Positions 25,152 through 33,768 are shown, numbered from the stretch's first letter. The stretch is DNA of 64,000 bases from Candidatus Omnitrophota bacterium (GCA_903944345.1 CAJARJ010000002.1:1969-65968); one strand, 5' to 3'. The notes: generated by a model not told the origin, from the sequence alone. Made by a program: numbers and translations.

Positions 25152-27656
25152 TTACCACCCTCCTCCGCCACCACCTCCGCCACCGCCGCCGCTGGAACCG
25201 CCACCACCAGTGCCAGAGCTGGAAGAAGGCGCGGATGAAGCTGAGCTGATCGAACTGCTCAACGAACTGCCCAGACCTGAAGCAAAAGCAACACCGCCTG
25301 CCGTTGTTAACAATGAACCGGAGTACCAGTGCGGGCGATAAGCACCCTCCCCCGCAGAGGCTCGCGCCAAAACCTCGGAAAAACCTTCCGCCCAGACCTG
25401 CTCGACGCCAAGGGCAAGCGCATACGGTAAATACTGCTCGAACAACTCAACACTTTCTTGTGGACGCCCCAACATCCGCAACCGATCCTTTTCGGCCACC
25501 GAAAGATACATCCGAAAACCTTCCACCTGGTCCATAATCCTGCGCCCCTGAAAAGTCGGCGCTCTGAGCAAATAATAAAAAAGCACATCCAGCCCGACTG
25601 CCATCAAAAGAACCAGCAGTACAATTGGCGAGGAGAACGCCACAAGTGTCAAGATTCCAAAAATTTCCCCCCCAAAAAACGGCAAAGAAAAAACCGAAAG
25701 CAACAAAGCTCCCGGCAGATGAACAGGATTACGCGCAACAGACTTCCATGCCTGGAACAACGCCGCTCCAAGCGCTGCAACACCCAAAGTCCAGATCGAA
25801 AGCCACAAACACATAAACAACACGACCGGTGGGCTTTTGGCATCAGTCAATACAGTTACGGCAATAACCGCAAAACAGAGACCCAGCCCAACACCAAAAA
25901 CACCCCGGTTGGTCACAAAATAATTCTTCTCCTGGGAGCGCGCGAGGGCACCCTGCAGACGGGAAATTCCTGAAGCAATAACGGCATGATTCCTCTGCAG
26001 AAGCTCAAGCCTGCCACGTCCTCTGAAAAACTCCGCAGCCAGAACTTTTTCCTCGGAAGAAAGGACATCCTCTGCCTTTCCGGTTCTGGCAAGAACAGAC
26101 GTCCCGTCAGCTTCCTCGCTGATCGTCAGATACCCCTTGACCGCCATACTGATCAAGGCACAGGCCGCGACCTGATTATCATATCCCATATTCATCAAAT
26201 ATCGCAAACCCGCCGGAGACAGGTCTTTGGGAGGATAGAACAGCGGAATAATAACCCCTTTTTCCGGATCTCGCCCGACACGATTCCAGGAAACAAGATA
26301 AAACAGAAGAAGGATAACAAGACCCATTCCGCCTGCCAGAAAACCCCGCCAGTCCCGCAAAAAATACATCAAACGCTGTTGCGGCGTAGGCCCCAGCACA
26401 ATTCCTTTGGGCCAACTGACCGCAATCGTCAAACCTTCATGCGCGAGCAGCGCACGGGTTGTCCTGAAAGTAATTCTGTTCTGCGCATCCATGCCTGTTT
26501 CGGCATCTTTGCCCCTCGCGCCTTCCAACCCCGTATAAACCGCCGTCTTCAAAACACGCTGCTGCGCCCTGGAAGGAAGCACAACCACCGCGGAAACCTG
26601 ATTCATGGCAAAATCCCAGCCATTACCGGTCACATTCCAGTACAATTCGTCATAATCTTCATAAAAACCGGTCTGGCGGTCCGTCCCGTAGGTAATAACA
26701 TATTCATGCTCCCCGACAGAGACGATCTCTTCTTTGGATCCCAGATAAGTCCTGAGGCCATTGGCCTGTTTTTTTTGATGATATTCTTCAGGCTGACCGT
26801 CGCGCATGACCTTGAGCACTTTAAAATCCACCAGCATCCGGCGCCCAGAAGCTGTTTTATACGACGTCGGGAAATCCCGGTAAATACCATGCCTGATCTG
26901 CTTGCCTTCGGCCAGCACGCGAATAGTCTCGGTCACCAGCATAGAACCATCAACACGAACAACAATATCGCTGTGAAATGCCAAGATACGTTCCTCGGCC
27001 AGCGAAGATCCAATCCCTAAAAACACAAACAGAGCGGCAATCCCACAAGCTGCCACACCCCCTCCCAAGCCCTGATTACCTGAAAGCCGAATCTCGGGAG
27101 CCGCACGCTCAAGGGCGCTCTCAATCTCAAAAAACTTTTCTGGCCTGAACCCGGCCACGGCAGCGACAAGATTCCCCGGAAAAGAACAAACTGCTGTATT
27201 AAATTCACGAACACTCCCGTTGTAATAACGCCGGGCCATCTGCAGCTCATCCTCGATTTTGATCAGCGATTCCTGTAAAGAAAGATAATGACTGTCAGCC
27301 TTCAGATCCGGGTAAGCTTCCGCCAGGGCAAGCAGTCCACGCAATCCCAGAGACAGACTGCTTTCCGCGACCACACGCCCCAGTGGCCCGGTTGTTGTTG
27401 CCTGTGCACGCAGTGCCGTCACGTCTTCAAGAAGATCGCGTTCATAAGCGGCATAATGTTTGACCACATTGACCAGATTGGGAACAAGATCATGCCGTCG
27501 TTTGAGCTGAACATCAATACCGCTGAGGGCTTCCTGCAGGCTACTGCGCAGTTTCACAAAACGGTTAAACAACATGACGGCATAACTGGCAACCAACGCA
27601 ATCACAAGAATAATGGCCATAAATATATTGAACCCTCCGGATAAAGATTTGTCCAA
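25152..27656 (-). CDS. LemA-family domain fused to DUF2207-type multi-pass membrane protein with Gly-rich C-terminal tail
   Basis: N-terminus matches the LemA family (TM helix + LRSSLQEALSGIDVQLKRRHDLVPNLVNVVKHYAAYE). A DUF2207-like extracellular domain follows (HGIYRDFPT...YEDYDELYWNVTG), then several TM helices, and a tail SSSSGTGGGGSSGGGGGGGGGGGW. Confidence 0.7.
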   Translation of the reverse strand: MDKSLSGGFNIFMAIILVIALVASYAVMLFNRFVKLRSSLQEALSGIDVQLKRRHDLVPNLVNVVKHYAAYERDLLEDVTALRAQATTTGPLGRVVAESSLSLGLRGLLALAEAYPDLKADSHYLSLQESLIKIEDELQMARRYYNGSVREFNTAVCSFPGNLVAAVAGFRPEKFFEIESALERAAPEIRLSGNQGLGGGVAACGIAALFVFLGIGSSLAEERILAFHSDIVVRVDGSMLVTETIRVLAEGKQIRHGIYRDFPTSYKTASGRRMLVDFKVLKVMRDGQPEEYHQKKQANGLRTYLGSKEEIVSVGEHEYVITYGTDRQTGFYEDYDELYWNVTGNGWDFAMNQVSAVVVLPSRAQQRVLKTAVYTGLEGARGKDAETGMDAQNRITFRTTRALLAHEGLTIAVSWPKGIVLGPTPQQRLMYFLRDWRGFLAGGMGLVILLLFYLVSWNRVGRDPEKGVIIPLFYPPKDLSPAGLRYLMNMGYDNQVAACALISMAVKGYLTISEEADGTSVLARTGKAEDVLSSEEKVLAAEFFRGRGRLELLQRNHAVIASGISRLQGALARSQEKNYFVTNRGVFGVGLGLCFAVIAVTVLTDAKSPPVVLFMCLWLSIWTLGVAALGAALFQAWKSVARNPVHLPGALLLSVFSLPFFGGEIFGILTLVAFSSPIVLLVLLMAVGLDVLFYYLLRAPTFQGRRIMDQVEGFRMYLSVAEKDRLRMLGRPQESVELFEQYLPYALALGVEQVWAEGFSEVLARASAGEGAYRPHWYSGSLLTTAGGVAFASGLGSSLSSSISSASSAPSSSSGTGGGGSSGGGGGGGGGGGW

Positions 27657-27683: not shown

Positions 27684-27724
27684 ATAAAAAACCGGTGGGC
27701 GGTTTTAATCGCGCCACCGGTCTT
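27684..27724 (-). terminator. Putative rho-independent terminator ending the fmt-dsbD-redoxin-Cys-rich operon
   Basis: Imperfect inverted repeat CCGGTGGGCG-gttttaat-CGCGCCACCGG. On the minus-strand transcript it is followed by UUUUUUAU, just past the stop at 27745. Confidence 0.45.
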
Positions 27725-27744
27725 TGCCATTCAATCAACTCATG

Positions 27745-27951
27745 CTATTGTTCTTTCTTCCCGGCACAGTCGCAAGCCTTCTGCTGACAGGAACACTTTG
27801 CGTCCTTCATGCAATCGCATTTGCTCTCCTGGCTGCACCCGCACGCACAAGGCATTCCGTTCTTAAGACAACAGGATTTGTCCTTGGCAAAGGCCACTCC
27901 CGAGGCAAGAACAAGCATCGCACACAGCACCGCCACAACTGATCTTTTCAT
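27745..27951 (-). CDS. Small secreted Cys-rich protein (68 aa; 22-aa signal peptide + 46-aa mature peptide with 12 Cys), metallothionein-like
   Basis: MKRSVVAVLCAMLVLASGVAFA | KDKSCCLKNGMPCACGCSQESKCDCMKDAKCSCQQKACDCAGKKEQ. AAGGAG RBS 7 nt upstream of the ATG. Confidence 0.6.
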   Translation of the reverse strand: MKRSVVAVLCAMLVLASGVAFAKDKSCCLKNGMPCACGCSQESKCDCMKDAKCSCQQKACDCAGKKEQ

Positions 27952-27992
27952 AACGAACTCCTTAATGTTATTAAATTATTCCGGAGTATTTT

Positions 27993-28283
27993 TTATGCGA
28001 TCTGCGGCGGCGGGCGAAAGATATCCTTCAAGGCCTCCCGGAAATAAAACGAATCGGCGACAATAAAACATTCTTTTGATAAAACAAGCCCCAACGCCGG
28101 ATTTTCTCCGGGAATATCGGCCAGAATTGGCGGGCAGGGCATCAGGGCCGCCTGACAGCCGCAATCAGAACCATCATGACAGCAACTGCAGGCGCAAGGA
28201 AGATTCTTCCTGTCGCCTTCAAAGCCAGAAACAGGACGTGGAAGAACTATCAATAAAACAAGCAAGAAAACCAGCCAACGCAT
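27993..28283 (-). CDS. Small secreted Cys-rich protein (96 aa) sharing a PCAC(S/G)C motif with 27745..27951
   Basis: Signal peptide MRWLVFLLVLLIVLPRPVSG followed by ...NLPCACSCCHDGSDCGCQAALMPCPP.... AGGA/GGTG upstream of the ATG. Confidence 0.5.
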   Translation of the reverse strand: MRWLVFLLVLLIVLPRPVSGFEGDRKNLPCACSCCHDGSDCGCQAALMPCPPILADIPGENPALGLVLSKECFIVADSFYFREALKDIFRPPPQIA

Positions 28284-28379
28284 TTTTCCTGAACACCTTT
28301 CTTCGTAACGAGAATATCATCCCGCCCGACAATAGCCAAGAAAAAAGCCGGATCAGGCCCTCATCCCTGATGAAACGGA

Positions 28380-28982
28380 TCAATATTTGACCGAACAACC
28401 ATAAGACTTGCCGGATTCGACTGTGACCGGATTCCCCGCCAGCAACTGATCAAGCACGGCCGCCGCGTAGTTACGCGCCAGTTTTAAATCCTCCGTCGAA
28501 GTACTCGGTCTGTCGTCAATGGCACCCTGGTAAACGAGCTTGCCGGCGGCATCAATGATAAAGATGTGCGGCGTGGTCTGAGCTCCATACAGACGGCCAA
28601 CCGCGCCATCGGCGTCCATCAGGGCTGCTGTACCAGCAAACCCTTCACTGGCCAGACGAACGGCCAAACCCGCGGGAGAATAATGTCCCTGCTTCCCGGG
28701 AGCCGAAGAATTAACCGACAACCAGACAACTCCTTTAGCCGTATAATCGGCCTGCCATTTCTGCATGGCTTTGGCATCATAAAATTTTCTAACAAAAGGA
28801 CATTCCGGATTGGTCCACTCAAGCAAAACAATCTTGCCTTTAAAAGAACCCAGAGGATAGGCTTCACCCTTGACATCGGTAAGAGTAAAATCCGGAGCCA
28901 TGTCTCCGGTAACAACCTGCGCCCAAGACGCCCCGACACATAAAACAAGCGCAACCCAAAAAAGAAAAAACGTTCTTAACAT
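28380..28982 (-). CDS. Periplasmic thioredoxin-fold redoxin (TlpA/AhpC-TSA-like) with atypical active site
   Basis: Signal peptide MLRTFFLFWVALVLCVGASWAQ. GKIVLLEWTNPECPFV sits at the usual WCxxC position but has a single Cys. A second Cys lies near the C-terminus (SYGCSVKY). Confidence 0.6.
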   Translation of the reverse strand: MLRTFFLFWVALVLCVGASWAQVVTGDMAPDFTLTDVKGEAYPLGSFKGKIVLLEWTNPECPFVRKFYDAKAMQKWQADYTAKGVVWLSVNSSAPGKQGHYSPAGLAVRLASEGFAGTAALMDADGAVGRLYGAQTTPHIFIIDAAGKLVYQGAIDDRPSTSTEDLKLARNYAAAVLDQLLAGNPVTVESGKSYGCSVKY

Positions 28983-29096
28983 GTTGTCCCCCTTAATTTT
29001 GTCTTTCTGCAGAAAAAATAAGTCGAATTTGTATCGAATCAAAAGCCAACAAAGTTTAGTCTTGGAAAACTTCTGATCCTTACCAAAAGAACGAAA

Positions 29097-31124
29097 CTAT
29101 TTCTGCAAAACATCCCGCAAAAAGGGCCGGGTCAGCAGTTCCGGCAAAAGCTGAGCCGAGTCACTGCCAGCGGCATAAAACACATACAAAGGAACCCCTG
29201 CCCGCCCGAAAGACTCCAGGGCCTGCGTAATGCGTTCATCACGGCTAGTCCAGTCGGCAATAAAAAGTGCCACATTCTCTTGTTTAAACAATGCCAATAT
29301 TGCCGGAGTTTTTAATACTGTCAGCTTGTTCACCTGGCAGGTCAGACACCAACTGGCAGTAAAATCGATAAAAACCGGACGACCCTCCAAACGGGCAGCC
29401 GCGACCGCCTCCGGATCATACGACTGCCAGACAATATCTTTCCCGCTCGAATCTCCCGGCAAAACAGCCAAACCGTACACCAGCGCCGCCGCAAATACCG
29501 CCAGGGCCAGCCACCGGCGGCCACGCCCAAAAAACCAGCAGGCCAAAGCCGCCGCAAGCAAAATCCCCAAAGCACTCACCAAAACCGACATGCCCGACTG
29601 CTCACCGAGGACAGATAACAGCCAGATCACGCAGCCCATAAGGACAAAACCCAACAGCTGTTTTAACGTCAGCATCCAGTTACCGGGACGGGGAACAAAA
29701 CGTAAACAAGCAGGAAAAACCGTCACCAAAGCCATCGGCAACGCCAGTCCAAGTCCAAGAAAAGTAAAAATGAGCAAACCCGCCATCGGCGGCTGAGTAA
29801 GGGCAAAGCCCAGGGCACTACCCATAAAAGGAGCCGTACAGGGCGTAGCCACGACTGTCATCAGTACGCCCGAAAGAAATGCCGAACCCTGAACCGGGAC
29901 AGAGGCTCCGACAACAAACTCGAAAACTCCGAACAAATTTAAAGCCAACACAAACAATAAAAGACTGATCAGCAGGACAAAAACCGGCGACTGGAACTGA
30001 AACCCCCACCCCAGGGAATGACCCGCGGCCTTGAGTAAAAACAACAATACCGCAAGAGCCCAGAAAGAAACCATAATGCCCAGCACATAAAAACCTGCCT
30101 GCACCAAAGCCCGGCGCTGATCGCTCTCTTTTCTGACCAACTGCAGAACCTTGAGAGAAAGAACCGGCAGAACACAAGGCATACCATTGAGAATGATCCC
30201 GCCAATAAAAGCCAAGAAACAGGCCAGCCACAAACCCGAAATGAATGCCGGAGTCGCGGATGCCACCGATGCGCTCACGGGGGCCTTGATCCTGACCGCC
30301 CTGGCTATCCCCCGGCTGTCCCAACCCCGCTCATGCACCAATATCCCTTCAATAAAATCCGGAGCTGATGTCTCCAACCCTGAACGCTCGACCAACAGTC
30401 GCGCCCGGTTTTGCGAACGGGTAAAAACCTGACCCGCTGCATGGCGAACCAGCCGATCCGAAAAAGGAAAGAACTCCACCCGGCCTTCCTGCCAGAACGG
30501 CAAACCAAGGTCAAGCCTCCATTTATCCGCTGAAACAGTTGCCCGCACATCAAGTTCAGGCAATTCAAACGGCCAGAGCAGACGCGTCTGCTCGAAAAGC
30601 GGTGCCTGCCCGGAAGGCCGGGGCGATTCCTGCGCAAGAGTCGGCGGCAAAACCAGGGACAATTCCGCTTCGCCCGGTAAACAATCCACCTGACAAGCAA
30701 GCCAGGAGACTTGAGCGCTGATCTGTACCGGAGCCGGATTCTGCGTTGCAGGGACAGTTACCGGCACAGCCAGCAATACTTCCCGCTCATAACCATAGGA
30801 CGCCAACGGTCCGGAAACAATGCGCTCTGGATACGGCCAGCGAACTTCTCCCGCCTGCCAGCCTTCGGGCAGCCGGAGCTCAATCGATGGCGCCAGCCCC
30901 GAGTCCCCGGGGTTGCGCCAATAAACATGCCAGCCATCGTCCATAACCATGCGCAGGCCCAGCCAGAGGGTTCCTCCGGCCGGCCAGGATTCATGTTCGG
31001 CCACCAGACTGACGCTCGTATGCGCAGAATAAACTTCAGCCCGAACAAAAGAAGCGGCCCCCAAAACCACTACTCCGGCCCAGAATATCCGACAGAAAAA
31101 CTGTTGAATGGAATACGCAAACAT
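29097..31124 (-). CDS. dsbD: Thiol:disulfide interchange protein DsbD (N-terminal periplasmic domain, CcdA-like TM core, C-terminal thioredoxin domain)
   Basis: DsbD-alpha-like N-domain. TM core with conserved Cys (MPCVLPVLSLK). C-terminal thioredoxin fold with WCLTC. Confidence 0.8.
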   Translation of the reverse strand: MFAYSIQQFFCRIFWAGVVVLGAASFVRAEVYSAHTSVSLVAEHESWPAGGTLWLGLRMVMDDGWHVYWRNPGDSGLAPSIELRLPEGWQAGEVRWPYPERIVSGPLASYGYEREVLLAVPVTVPATQNPAPVQISAQVSWLACQVDCLPGEAELSLVLPPTLAQESPRPSGQAPLFEQTRLLWPFELPELDVRATVSADKWRLDLGLPFWQEGRVEFFPFSDRLVRHAAGQVFTRSQNRARLLVERSGLETSAPDFIEGILVHERGWDSRGIARAVRIKAPVSASVASATPAFISGLWLACFLAFIGGIILNGMPCVLPVLSLKVLQLVRKESDQRRALVQAGFYVLGIMVSFWALAVLLFLLKAAGHSLGWGFQFQSPVFVLLISLLLFVLALNLFGVFEFVVGASVPVQGSAFLSGVLMTVVATPCTAPFMGSALGFALTQPPMAGLLIFTFLGLGLALPMALVTVFPACLRFVPRPGNWMLTLKQLLGFVLMGCVIWLLSVLGEQSGMSVLVSALGILLAAALACWFFGRGRRWLALAVFAAALVYGLAVLPGDSSGKDIVWQSYDPEAVAAARLEGRPVFIDFTASWCLTCQVNKLTVLKTPAILALFKQENVALFIADWTSRDERITQALESFGRAGVPLYVFYAAGSDSAQLLPELLTRPFLRDVLQK

Positions 31125-31165
31125 TGGTCTCCCTTCGAAGCGGCGAGCACCGCCTCAACACTACT

Positions 31166-32101
31166 TCAGGATTTCTCCAGCATATCGCCGACGACCAGTT
31201 TGTGCCCCGCCAGAAAAGCACGCGCGTCCATGGGCCTGGAACCGGCCGGATGAACCCGCCGGATCAGGACAGCCTGGTCGGCAGCACGGACGCAAAAACC
31301 TTCCTTGTGAAGGGCCACAATCTCGCCGGGGCGACCGGCTGCGGCCAGCGGCACCGGGGAGGCTTCCAAAACCTTGACCATATGTCCCCGCCAGAAAATA
31401 AACGCGCCCGGCCAGGGCTGCAGGCCGCGCACCAGATCATGAACGGCTCTGGCCGTGCTGTTCCAGTTAATACGCCCCAACTCTTTGTGCAACTTGGCCG
31501 CGTAGGTCGCCTGACTATGGTCCTGCGGGACGGGAACAATTTCTCCCGCCTTGATGCGGGGCAAAGTGCGCGATAAAAGTCCGGCTCCCATTTCGGCCAG
31601 CCGTACGCGCAGTTCCGCCGAAGTCATCTCAAGCGAAACAGCACAGGTTTCTAAAGCCAGTATGTCTCCCTCGTCCATTCCGGGCGACATCTGCATGATG
31701 GTCACTCCACTTTGGGTCTCTCCGTTAATAACCGCCCAATTGACCGGAGCCGCCCCTCGATACCTAGGCAAAAGGGACGCATGCACATTGATACACCGAT
31801 AGGACGGCAGATTAAGAATATCCACCGGAAGAATCTTGCCGTAAGCCACAACCACAAAAATATCCGCCCGGAAAGCCGCCAGGCGCTCAAGGACTGCCGG
31901 CTCCTTGAGAGTCAAGGGCTGAAAAACATCCACTCCGTGAGCGCCGGCCACCTGTTTGGTCGCCGAAAAAACCATATGCAAACCTCGCCCCTTGGGGCGA
32001 TCCGGCTGGGTCACCAGCCCGACCACCTTGTGCCCGTCATCGAGCAGACGCCCGAGACTGACTGCGGCAAAATCATCACAACCAAAAAAAAGAATTCTCA
32101 T
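31166..32101 (-). CDS. fmt: Methionyl-tRNA formyltransferase
   Basis: MRILFFGCDDFAAVSL...VVGLVTQPDRPKGRG. Formyltransferase N- and C-domains present. Confidence 0.9.
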   Translation of the reverse strand: MRILFFGCDDFAAVSLGRLLDDGHKVVGLVTQPDRPKGRGLHMVFSATKQVAGAHGVDVFQPLTLKEPAVLERLAAFRADIFVVVAYGKILPVDILNLPSYRCINVHASLLPRYRGAAPVNWAVINGETQSGVTIMQMSPGMDEGDILALETCAVSLEMTSAELRVRLAEMGAGLLSRTLPRIKAGEIVPVPQDHSQATYAAKLHKELGRINWNSTARAVHDLVRGLQPWPGAFIFWRGHMVKVLEASPVPLAAAGRPGEIVALHKEGFCVRAADQAVLIRRVHPAGSRPMDARAFLAGHKLVVGDMLEKS

Positions 32102-33768
32102 GGATCAACATTCACGGTCACAACCGTGTCCTTTTTTCCGCGAAATGTCCGCAGAACCAGCCGAACATGCCCCATCAAAACCTTGAGCGCTCCCCCCTGG
32201 ATGACCACGCACCAGCGATATTTACCACGAAGAACCGCGCTGCGATCCGGCTGAGGCTCCATAAGCACAAGCCCCGCGGGACAATCCTTCAGTAACATAT
32301 CATACAACCTTTTGGCTTCATCGCAAGCCAGCTGTGCGTCAGCGGAACGCGCGACCAGAGCCACAATATGACGAAACGGAGGAAACCCCATCTCCCGGCG
32401 CTGTTCCAGCTCTCCGGCGTAAAAAGGCAAAGGATCGTCAGCCGCTGCCAGCTGCAGGGTCGGATCGGCGGCATTGCGGGTCTGCACAAGCACTTCGGTT
32501 CTGGTCATGGCCCGCAAATATCTTATCAGGGAAAAGGCCGCGTGCGCCGCGCGATGATCCAGGCGATGGAATTCCCGGTCAATATCCAACACACAGGAAA
32601 AGTCAAAAACCAGACTGCTGCGAAAGCGAAACAAAGACTGGGTGGCGACCACAATATCGGCCGACCCCGGCCATTGAGCCGAGGATGAATCATATCCGGC
32701 CACACGCGCGTAAATAAACGCCTCTTTGATCTCCTGCATCACCGACGCAGTCCCGCGAGCGGCCTGGATATACAAAACCGCGCGCCCTTTGGCCTGCAGA
32801 ATCTTTTCGAGGGTTATCCTCAAAGGCAAAGACAATACGCTGCCCCGACGCATTTTGAAATTTCCAAGATCCATGAGACGCGCCGGTGCCAGTGAATCCG
32901 TAAAACGGATCATCCGCCCGTTCGGTAAAGAAGCCTCATGCCAGGCTTCGGCGGAAGGGGCCAAAGACACCATAGCCACGGTACAGCCTTCCAGCCGCGA
33001 ACGCAAAAAAACCGCTTCCCGGGCATGATAAAAAGGCGACTGGTCATGTTTGTAGGACTGACTTTCCTCATCGACAATTACAATCAGTCCCAGATCCGGG
33101 ACCGGAGTCAGCGCCGCAGAAATAAAACCTGCAGCCAGTCGCCGGCGTCCCCGGCAAAGGTCATCCCAGCGTCCGGCTTCCTGCTTCTGCGTTCCCCCCG
33201 CCATAACCAGAGGATCAAGACCATACCCGCGCAGGCGACCGAGAGTATCGTCAAGGTATCCGGCGTCGGGAACGAGCACCAGAACTCTTTGTCCGGACTT
33301 CAGTGTCTGTCCGATCTTCTCCAGCAATACCGGCCAGCACTTGCGCAAACGATCATCAAAATACAACTCCACCGCCCCGCGTACGTTCCGGGATGCCTGG
33401 ATCCGCAAAGCCGGTAACGCGCCGGCAGGAGCCAGACGTTTACGCGGAAGGCGCCAGTAACCGGGAAGAAAAAGCTCCAAAGCCTCGCCCAGAGAACACC
33501 CAAAACGCAGGGCAAACACTTCCGCCAGACGCAAGGCGTGCGGCGGAAGGGACGGATCCTCATCAAGAACAGCCAAAAGAGGCTTCAACTCCGGAAAGTC
33601 GCTGCTCCCGGCCAGGGAGACAACAATCCCCACTTTTTTACGGCCGGCAAAAGAAACCAGCACCCGGACTCCGGGAGATACGCAAGACCTGTAACTGTCG
33701 GGAACAGAATAGTCAAACGGGGTCTCAACAGGGATACCGAAAGCAACTCGGGCAATACAGCTGGACAT
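32098..33768 (-). CDS. PriA-like primosomal protein N' homolog with degenerate helicase motifs (putative pseudo-helicase)
   Basis: Collinear with PriA: an N-terminal 3'-DNA-binding domain (VAFGIPVETPFDYSVP), LVLVPDAGYL, LIVIVDEESQSYKHDQSPFYHAREA, and a C-terminal LRGKYRWCVVIQ. It lacks GSGKT (Walker A), has DEES instead of DEEH, lacks the Cys4 zinc-binding insert, and has no QxxGRxGR. Confidence 0.6.
   Translation of the reverse strand: MSSCIARVAFGIPVETPFDYSVPDSYRSCVSPGVRVLVSFAGRKKVGIVVSLAGSSDFPELKPLLAVLDEDPSLPPHALRLAEVFALRFGCSLGEALELFLPGYWRLPRKRLAPAGALPALRIQASRNVRGAVELYFDDRLRKCWPVLLEKIGQTLKSGQRVLVLVPDAGYLDDTLGRLRGYGLDPLVMAGGTQKQEAGRWDDLCRGRRRLAAGFISAALTPVPDLGLIVIVDEESQSYKHDQSPFYHAREAVFLRSRLEGCTVAMVSLAPSAEAWHEASLPNGRMIRFTDSLAPARLMDLGNFKMRRGSVLSLPLRITLEKILQAKGRAVLYIQAARGTASVMQEIKEAFIYARVAGYDSSSAQWPGSADIVVATQSLFRFRSSLVFDFSCVLDIDREFHRLDHRAAHAAFSLIRYLRAMTRTEVLVQTRNAADPTLQLAAADDPLPFYAGELEQRREMGFPPFRHIVALVARSADAQLACDEAKRLYDMLLKDCPAGLVLMEPQPDRSAVLRGKYRWCVVIQGGALKVLMGHVRLVLRTFRGKKDTVVTVNVDP

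Follow-up and report, generated by a model that had tools for sequence, protein, structure and literature searches.

A rare gene pair for exported cysteine-rich proteins, beside scsB-prxL in an Omnitrophota genome, as a candidate periplasmic copper thionein cassette

What is the role of two very small genes for exported, Cys-rich proteins that follow a DsbD-type reductase gene? The question is raised by positions 27684-32101 of a 64,000-nucleotide stretch of DNA from a Candidatus Omnitrophota bacterium (GCA_903944345.1, CAJARJ010000002.1:1969-65968), hereafter the window. Here a dsbD-like gene, a gene for an atypical redoxin and two small open reading frames (ORFs), orf96 and orf68, lie downstream of fmt. 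The original prediction regarded the four as one purpose-built module for buffering or detoxifying soft metals in the periplasm. The best explanation of the locus is instead two units side by side, a widespread scsB-prxL pair and a very rare orf96-orf68 cassette. The cassette is the novelty; we would describe it as a new family, very rare and metallothionein-like but exported. Our best reading of its function, which we consider on balance probable, is that orf68 encodes an exported periplasmic Cu(I)-thionein with a Cys-rich partner encoded by orf96. The four genes are:

29097-31124, minus strand: scsB, encoding a DsbD-type protein of 675 amino acids with DsbD_N, DsbD_TM and Thioredoxin_7 domains (Pfam)
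28380-28982, minus strand: prxL, encoding a redoxin of 200 amino acids (AhpC-TSA/Redoxin, Pfam), its ATG start backed by an alignment of homologues
27993-28283, minus strand: orf96, encoding a predicted secreted or membrane-anchored Cys-rich protein
27745-27951, minus strand: orf68, encoding a predicted Sec signal and a metallothionein-like peptide

The orf68 product begins with a predicted signal peptide, MKRSVVAVLCAMLVLASGVAFA, followed by KDK at the start of a 46-residue mature peptide with 11 Cys. The Sec signal consists of K/R residues, a hydrophobic core and an AFA/K junction, and its n-, h- and c-regions are kept in four lineages, ending in FA before K or E. Signal peptide and cleavage site were assigned by eye from alignment A4, and we infer export with cleavage after AFA. 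The four mature peptides of the family span 46-53 residues with 23-28% Cys and ~20% Lys, and all four lack F, W, Y and H. Their Cys spacing is CC-x6-7-CxCxC-x5-CxC-(xxxC)-x5-CxC-x3-7-CxC, with 11 invariant Cys columns; the totals are 11, 12, 13 and 12, and entire CxC units have been gained or lost between species. Such odd and varying totals do not fit a fixed disulfide scaffold, and odd or variable Cys numbers are typical of Cu-thioneins. The original prediction counted about 12 Cys in the 46 mature residues; its motifs (CC, CACGC, CDC, CSC and CDC) are all present, and the count is corrected to 11, the twelfth Cys being C10 within the signal peptide. The operational hallmarks of a metallothionein are found together here: a small mass, a very large share of Cys with CxC and CC motifs, and zero aromatics or His. 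AlphaFold2 returned no fold for orf68 (predicted local distance difference test, pLDDT, of 50) and placed no helix beyond the signal peptide, in keeping with a thionein that is empty and would fold only around metal.

Does the setting of any relative point to a particular metal? With an orf68 profile, a filter-only HMMER scan across 1.84 billion representative proteins retrieved only two further small proteins, P0124 (68 amino acids) and P0125 (75 amino acids, E = 2e-12). A third hit, P0126 (2771 amino acids), was rejected as a repeat protein with 4% Cys whose score was summed from 21 weak repeats. Word-indexed protein searches with orf68 and orf96 found the sister species only. Pattern and tblastn scans of genome_contigs and metagenome_contigs gave pattern matches with no confirmed relative, in collections where the window's own lineage seems absent or masked, and tblastn against plasmids gave nothing. 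Overall, the orf68 family comprises four lineages from a search of ~15 billion proteins.

One of these relatives links the family to copper. The gene for P0125 (orf75, on contigs L015 and L099, 44% G+C) starts 14 nucleotides (nt) after a gene for a CsoR-family repressor and has a terminator behind it; the peptide is therefore the sole cargo of the csoR operon. The contig shows no orf96 partner. The L015 repressor matches PF02583 (3e-28), and its ligand residues C35/H60/C64, with Lys at the W position, give the set x-C-H-C. Within the CsoR family, x-C-H-C marks Cu(I) sensors, H-C-H-H/C Ni/Co sensors, P-C-H-x formaldehyde sensors and x-C-x-C persulfide sensors (PMC8643695). The best NCBIfam match is likewise a copper sensor, RicR (8e-22), with FrmR and RcnR at ~1e-9. 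The sequence 5' of csoR, TTGACATACCCCCATGGGGTATGCGATACT, contains the perfect palindrome ATACCCC-CAT-GGGGTAT, flanked by hexamers that resemble -35 and -10 elements, and the predicted operator, ATACCCCCATGGGGTAT, lies between TTGACA and GATACT. For comparison, in Streptomyces, Bacillus, Staphylococcus and Listeria the established CsoR operator of type 2 is ATATACCCCTNAGGGGTATAT, with the arrangement TAC-N9-GTA (PMC3902906). The L015 repressor and its TAC-N9-GTA G-tract operator are thus predicted to be canonical features of Cu(I)-type CsoR control, and copper would be expected to derepress the operon. There is precedent for a CsoR-family repressor acting on a metallothionein gene, in that RicR controls mymT (PMC3944814). 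Through the csoR operon of P0125, the soft-metal interpretation of the 68-residue peptide gains independent support, drawn from sequence, that points specifically to copper.

The second gene of the cassette, orf96, encodes an N-terminal hydrophobic segment, then the Cys cluster CxCxCC...DCGC...PC and the motifs I(L/F)AD and, at the C-terminus, LKDIF(R/H)PP. Of its eight Cys, 6-7 are kept in the family and six are invariant, and a 22-residue stretch holds seven conserved Cys. The N-terminus may be either a cleavable signal or a membrane anchor. Two Sec-exported proteins with mature lengths of ~46 and ~75 residues had been proposed: the first length stands, and orf96 would yield 76 residues if cut after VSG. 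AlphaFold2 gave no confident model of orf96 (pLDDT 45). Homologues comprise P0003, those on L007 and L009, and the copy on L017/L098, which is 34% identical; wherever the contig reaches that far, they are always directly upstream of an orf68 homologue. Judged from this co-occurrence and the Cys cluster alone, orf96 is most likely a metal hand-off or loading partner of orf68.

A comparison of both mini-proteins with profile collections and PDB sequences, along the lines originally proposed, returned no match. The orf68 family gave none in Pfam, NCBIfam and PHROGs (E up to 0.1-1) and orf68 none among PDB sequences (E up to 10); orf96 gave none in Pfam, NCBIfam and PHROGs, and noise only among PDB sequences. 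The motif PCAC(G/S)C is present in both small proteins, as had been noticed. A kinship between orf68 and orf96 suggested by this common motif was ruled out by hhalign, which detected no homology between the two families (probability 11%).

In the remaining lineage the two genes occur together. P0124 is encoded on contigs L017 and L098 (35% G+C) and is preceded by orf98, a 98-residue orf96 homologue that has CAC.C..HDCGC, PC..I(L/F)AD and LKDIF(R/H)PP in common with orf96. The spacing between orf98 and the orf68 homologue is 41-42 nt, with the same ribosome-binding site as in the window cassette. No scsB or prxL was found on this 5.9-kb contig, where ~4 kb follow the L098 cassette and the upstream flank is much shorter. 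A pair that persists in a distant lineage, on a contig with no scsB, is therefore a two-gene unit in its own right. Similarly, no scsB or prxL was found near csoR-orf75 on L015/L099, up to ~9 kb downstream and with a much shorter upstream flank.

Ahead of orf98-orf68, on the same strand, lies a gene for a 433-residue predicted outer-membrane protein (L017 85-1386; L098 45-1346). This protein has a signal peptide, a coiled-coil-like N-terminal stretch, an aromatic residue at its C-terminus and a weak match to Porin_4 (E = 0.04); in this lineage it might serve the cassette as an outer-membrane component. At the start of contig L017, upstream of the porin-like gene, positions 1-63 hold a long perfect inverted repeat with 21-nt arms, TAGGGACGGACCCTATTTTTT … AAAAAATAGGGTCCGTCCCTA, which may represent a terminator, an operator or an artefact of assembly. 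The Rrf2 regulator gene on L017 had been taken for a divergent neighbour; it is actually convergent, and therefore no regulatory inference is drawn from it.

Are ORFs of this size genuine genes? Both are coding and under purifying selection. The 68-residue protein occurs as an identical copy on 14 metagenome and genome contigs, and in a sister species (contig L007) the order priA-fmt-dsbD-redoxin-orf94-orf72-lemA is intact. Against L007, at a synonymous divergence (dS) of ~0.5-1.0, the ratio of nonsynonymous to synonymous substitution rates (dN/dS) is 0.11 for orf96 and 0.26 for orf68, compared with 0.12 for dsbD and 0.14 for the redoxin gene. Indels are in frame, including a 2-codon indel in orf96. 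Among lineages, 8 of the 11 invariant Cys codons of orf68 (across all four lineages) and 6/6 of those of orf96 alternate between TGT and TGC, and selection therefore acts on the amino acid rather than on the nucleotide sequence. The ribosome-binding sites of the small ORFs are rated good, that of orf68 being AAGGAG, 7 nt 5' of the ATG. In a third species (L009), whose redoxin is 77% identical, an orf96 homologue follows the redoxin gene before the contig ends. The small ORFs are thus real and conserved, as originally supposed, and they have not been lost in the sister species. Gene callers handle them poorly: orf96 is uncalled in L001 (9669-9959) and cut to 49 residues in L002 (9810-9959), and the orf68 homologue in L098 (1768-1974) is an intact ORF that was missed. 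Such missed or truncated calls mean that protein-database counts underestimate the family.

What, then, are the two larger genes? In the ScsB-like protein, a long alpha domain is followed by a beta domain that spans the membrane and a gamma domain of thioredoxin type; six Cys are invariant in alignment A5, two per domain (C144/C148, C317/C429 and C593/C596). About 270 residues precede the first transmembrane segment, their N-terminal part conserved and their C-terminal part variable. Among PDB entries the N-terminal domain is best matched by 6c29, the alpha domain of ScsB from Proteus mirabilis (E = 1.9e-5), and the same PDB search gave no DsbD-alpha match. These results lend modest support to an ScsB-type alpha domain and to a predicted placement of the 675-residue protein in the ScsB class of the DsbD superfamily, a class set out by Cho et al. 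2012 (PMC3322552). At only 43% identity, the closest named homologues of ScsB come from Omnitrophota and other candidate phyla.

The redoxin had been described as having a single-Cys active site. It has a signal peptide and two invariant, far-apart Cys in alignment A2, C61 (EWTNPECPF) and C196 (YGCSVKY), so this description does not hold. The family motifs are EWxNxxCPF and the C-terminal YGCSVKY, and LEWTNPEC stands where peroxiredoxins have PxxxTxxC. More than 7800 homologues at 53-67% identity were found in Kiritimatiellia, Omnitrophica, Acidobacteriota and others; the best PDB matches, 2ywi and 3u5r, are both uncharacterised and have the same C-terminal motif, in the form GC(S/N)IKW. These are the features of PrxL (peroxiredoxin-like 1, cd02969), an exported protein of thioredoxin fold with two distant Cys that is encoded near scsB (PMC3322552). 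In Caulobacter, PrxL is kept reduced by ScsB in vivo and has no peroxidase activity, and the protein has no known substrate or function (Cho et al. 2012, mBio; PMC3322552). On sequence grounds, the supposed combination of DsbD with an atypical redoxin is the ScsB-PrxL pair already described.

How tightly is the cassette tied to this pair? An alignment search of genome_contigs with ScsB gave 498 relatives, of which 80 loci from many phyla were retrieved for a study of their neighbourhoods. In at least 38 of the 80 loci, the next gene downstream of scsB encodes a PrxL homologue, a count that rises to probably 49 once over-long ORF calls are allowed for. With such adjacency across phyla, scsB-prxL is an ancient, known pair that was not built for the peptides. 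In these 80 other scsB loci, HMM profiles of orf96 and orf68 found 0 homologues, and no other secreted Cys-rich mini-ORFs were seen. More distant relatives, L010 and L013, keep scsB-prxL without the peptides and have other genes downstream, a TetR regulator and an RND pump in L013. The corresponding position in L010 (4881-5306) encodes a secreted Lys/Ala/Glu-rich protein of 141 residues with no Cys and no family match. The claim of one dedicated module is thus not sustained, as none of the 80 other loci carries the peptides, L010 and L013 have the pair alone, and the peptides occur elsewhere on contigs without scsB or prxL. Of the proposed conservation of gene order, what remains is its retention in a narrow clade (L007 and L009).

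Transcription signals bear on the same point. The further features of the locus are:

32098-33768, minus strand: priA
31166-32101, minus strand: fmt
28311-28319, minus strand: candidate for an extended -10 element, TGATATTCT, preceding the ATG of orf96 by 28 nt
~27685-27727, minus strand: intrinsic terminator, a hairpin plus U6 (-25.3 kcal/mol, z = -4.41)
25152-27656, minus strand: LemA-DUF2207 fusion gene, after the terminator

All genes of the set lie on the minus strand with fmt where the original prediction placed them, with intergenic gaps, from fmt to orf68 in order, of 41, 114, 96 and 41 nt. The hairpin terminator that it noted after the small genes is well defined and is also kept in L007, and a comparable hairpin with a T-run lies 3' of the orf68 homologues in L015 and L017. 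A candidate hairpin after prxL was not accepted as a terminator, being no better than shuffled sequence (z = -0.69), and there may be read-through from prxL into orf96. An extended -10-like sequence, TGNTATTNT, is kept in the window, L007 and L009 amid an otherwise diverged prxL-orf96 spacer, and hints at a cassette-specific promoter upstream of orf96; a promoter scan of the window did not list a full -35/-10 site at 28311-28319. An Rfam scan of the window found no RNA family.

Several observations concern the flanking genes. The PriA-like protein has 556 residues, a short length also kept in the sister species; Pfam detects its 3' DNA-binding domain and PriA C-terminal domain alone, and nothing of the helicase core (DEAD/Helicase_C) at E up to 0.1. 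The LemA-DUF2207 fusion (822-834 residues) ends in a long Ser/Gly tail (…SSGTGGGGSSGGGGGGGGGGGW), and the magnetosome protein MamQ is matched in part by its LemA portion. Immediately beyond the terminator of orf68, the strain-level contig L003 (10208-15833) differs from L001 (10208 onward), having genes for a PAS-GGDEF-EAL protein and for a CZB-domain (zinc-binding) chemoreceptor where L001 has LemA-DUF2207; this gene swap places a rearrangement breakpoint right at the end of the cassette. Between 25 and 35 kb, each of the seven genes that were identified is on the minus strand, and GC skew is negative in all 2-kb bins over the 64 kb (-0.06 to -0.21).

From these elements we propose the following scheme. 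The orf68 product would be exported by Sec and cut after AFA to release a Lys-rich peptide of 46 residues with 11 thiols in CC and CxC units. As in metallothioneins, the empty peptide would be disordered and would take up its fold around a cluster of Cu(I) and thiolates; judging from Cu-thioneins with a comparable number of Cys, each peptide might load ~6-8 Cu(I). The peptide would then buffer or sequester periplasmic copper, perhaps together with other thiophilic metals. The orf96 product, exported or anchored, would contribute its 7-Cys cluster as an obligate partner, likely as a metal hand-off or loading factor. The scsB-prxL pair would carry reducing power into the envelope and in this lineage may keep the peptide thiols reduced. 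Functional coupling of this kind, with electrons flowing from ScsB-PrxL to the peptides, is possible but doubtful in our estimation. The fuller proposal, that orf68 is the first genuine unmodified extracytoplasmic bacterial metallothionein, acting with orf96 and reduced by ScsB via PrxL as a PrxL substrate, we regard as unlikely.

Several points count against a Cu(I)-thionein. It would be unusual to find a Cu(I)-thiolate cluster where the periplasm is oxidising, and no sequence homology to known metallothioneins was detected. The family is tiny, and with only four lineages comparative inference is thin. Copper regulation is evidenced, by sequence, for one homologue; the window itself has no csoR gene or CsoR box, and no copA, cus or multicopper oxidase gene lies within ~10 kb of the cassette. 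Neighbours of the L017/L098 copy, the porin-like gene, a convergent Rrf2 regulator gene and a gene for OsmC, form a context that is not metal-specific. These last two genes would suit another role, in which the peptides are periplasmic thiol redox or sulfur carriers (a sacrificial antioxidant, or carriers of persulfide or polysulfide) recycled by ScsB-PrxL as the substrate of PrxL. Near the L098 copy, OsmC and an Fe-S-type Rrf2 regulator fit such a role, as do the cassette's position beside scsB-prxL in three related species, the lack of a known PrxL substrate (PMC3322552) and the existence of CsoR-family proteins that sense persulfides (PMC8643695). However, the L015 regulator has His at the Y position (x-C-H-C) rather than the persulfide set x-C-x-C, its operator is of the copper type and its best match is RicR; moreover, the cassette is missing from 80/80 other scsB loci and occurs on contigs without scsB-prxL. 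We therefore think a carrier role quite improbable, and the iron-sulfur carrier raised originally as an alternative found no support.

A Sec signal, small size and many Cys are also what one would expect of disulfide-rich secreted products, such as bacteriocin-like or knotted peptides with a partner or immunity protein, for which ScsB-PrxL would serve disulfide isomerisation. The adjoining reductive or isomerising pathway and a two-gene layout common in peptide-plus-partner systems agree with this view, but Cys totals that are odd and varying (11, 12, 13 and 12), CxC units inserted or deleted, the absence of hydrophobic or aromatic core residues and of an AlphaFold fold, a homologue that is the sole cargo of an operon with a CsoR operator, and the lack of transporter or immunity genes nearby leave it very unlikely. 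Still less credible, and close to negligible in our judgement, is a bufferin-type origin, in which orf68 (perhaps also orf96) would be the Sec-exported precursor of a peptide made by ribosomes and modified after translation (RiPP) whose Cys are converted, for example to thiooxazoles, by enzymes encoded elsewhere. Bufferins are indeed Sec-exported, Cys-containing chelators of periplasmic copper, one class having 6 or 12 Cys (PMC11626156), but precomputed Pfam labels show no multinuclear non-haem iron-dependent oxidase (MNIO, DUF692) or DUF2063 gene within ~10 kb in the window lineage (L001) or on the L015/L099 and L017/L098 contigs; no DUF2282 or other bufferin model in Pfam or NCBIfam matches, and the csoR operon carries the peptide gene alone. 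A different kind of alternative concerns the position of the cassette rather than its function, and is compatible with the copper thionein as the best explanation of the latter: the cassette would be functional and its place beside scsB-prxL inherited synteny within one genus-level clade, without functional coupling. Here we find the case evenly balanced. Close kinship unites the three species that show the four-gene order (their redoxins are 77-84% identical), the 80 other scsB loci lack the cassette, L010 and L013 have other genes downstream of the pair, and an extended -10-like element is conserved 5' of orf96; yet the genes share a strand, the gap is 96 nt, there is no convincing terminator after prxL (z = -0.69), and passages of PMC10907172 and of a 2026 ScsD preprint link the Scs system to copper stress, in enterobacteria.

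Chaperones, oxidases and efflux pumps are credited with copper handling in the envelope, joined since 2024 by bufferins, which are modified by enzymes. If the copper thionein is borne out, a ribosomal, unmodified, Sec-exported thionein would be a new, minimal way of buffering periplasmic copper. The csoR-peptide operon is a two-gene system that is easy to test, and in the window the cassette beside scsB-prxL offers PrxL, a protein in search of a function since 2012, a specific candidate substrate. With four lineages, general importance is limited by rarity, unless the under-calling of small ORFs hides more members.

How does the locus compare with known systems? For scsB-prxL the match is complete: architecture, Cys pattern, signal peptide and gene adjacency all agree with the pair of Cho et al. 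2012, with nothing substantive that differs, and only the orf96-orf68 genes that follow the pair in this clade are new. The csoR-copZ-copA operons resemble the operon of the L015 homologue in having a CsoR-type repressor, the x-C-H-C set and a TAC-N9-GTA operator that overlaps the promoter; in contrast, the only cargo here is a secreted Cys-rich peptide, instead of an efflux ATPase or a CopZ chaperone. Bacterial metallothioneins (SmtA/BmtA, and MymT of Mycobacterium tuberculosis) are likewise small and very Cys-rich, with CxC and CC motifs and no aromatics; folding around a metal-thiolate cluster would be expected in both cases, and control by a copper sensor has a precedent in RicR-mymT (PMC3944814). 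The known bacterial metallothioneins are cytosolic, according to a 2020 review of copper homeostasis (PMC7558416), whereas the orf68 family has a conserved Sec signal, no detectable homology to them and usually a second conserved Cys-rich secreted protein as its partner.

Two exported systems come closer in location. Bufferins (BufA1/DUF2282, BUF_6/12Cys) are small Sec-exported Cys peptides that chelate periplasmic copper and are copper-induced (PMC11626156), but they need an MNIO and a DUF2063 partner in the cluster for Cys-to-thiooxazole conversion, and neither was found here; the orf68 peptides match no bufferin family and have a far higher Cys density. Csp1 is an exported, Cys-lined store of Cu(I) that holds 13 Cu(I) per monomer (PMC7558416). 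It is, however, exported by the Tat pathway as a pre-folded four-helix bundle of ~120 residues, whereas the peptides described here have a Sec-type signal with no twin-arginine motif, 46-53 residues and no predicted fold. Overall, the cassette appears to fit none of the metallothionein, bufferin and Csp1 families, combining the Cys pattern of the first with the predicted export of the other two.

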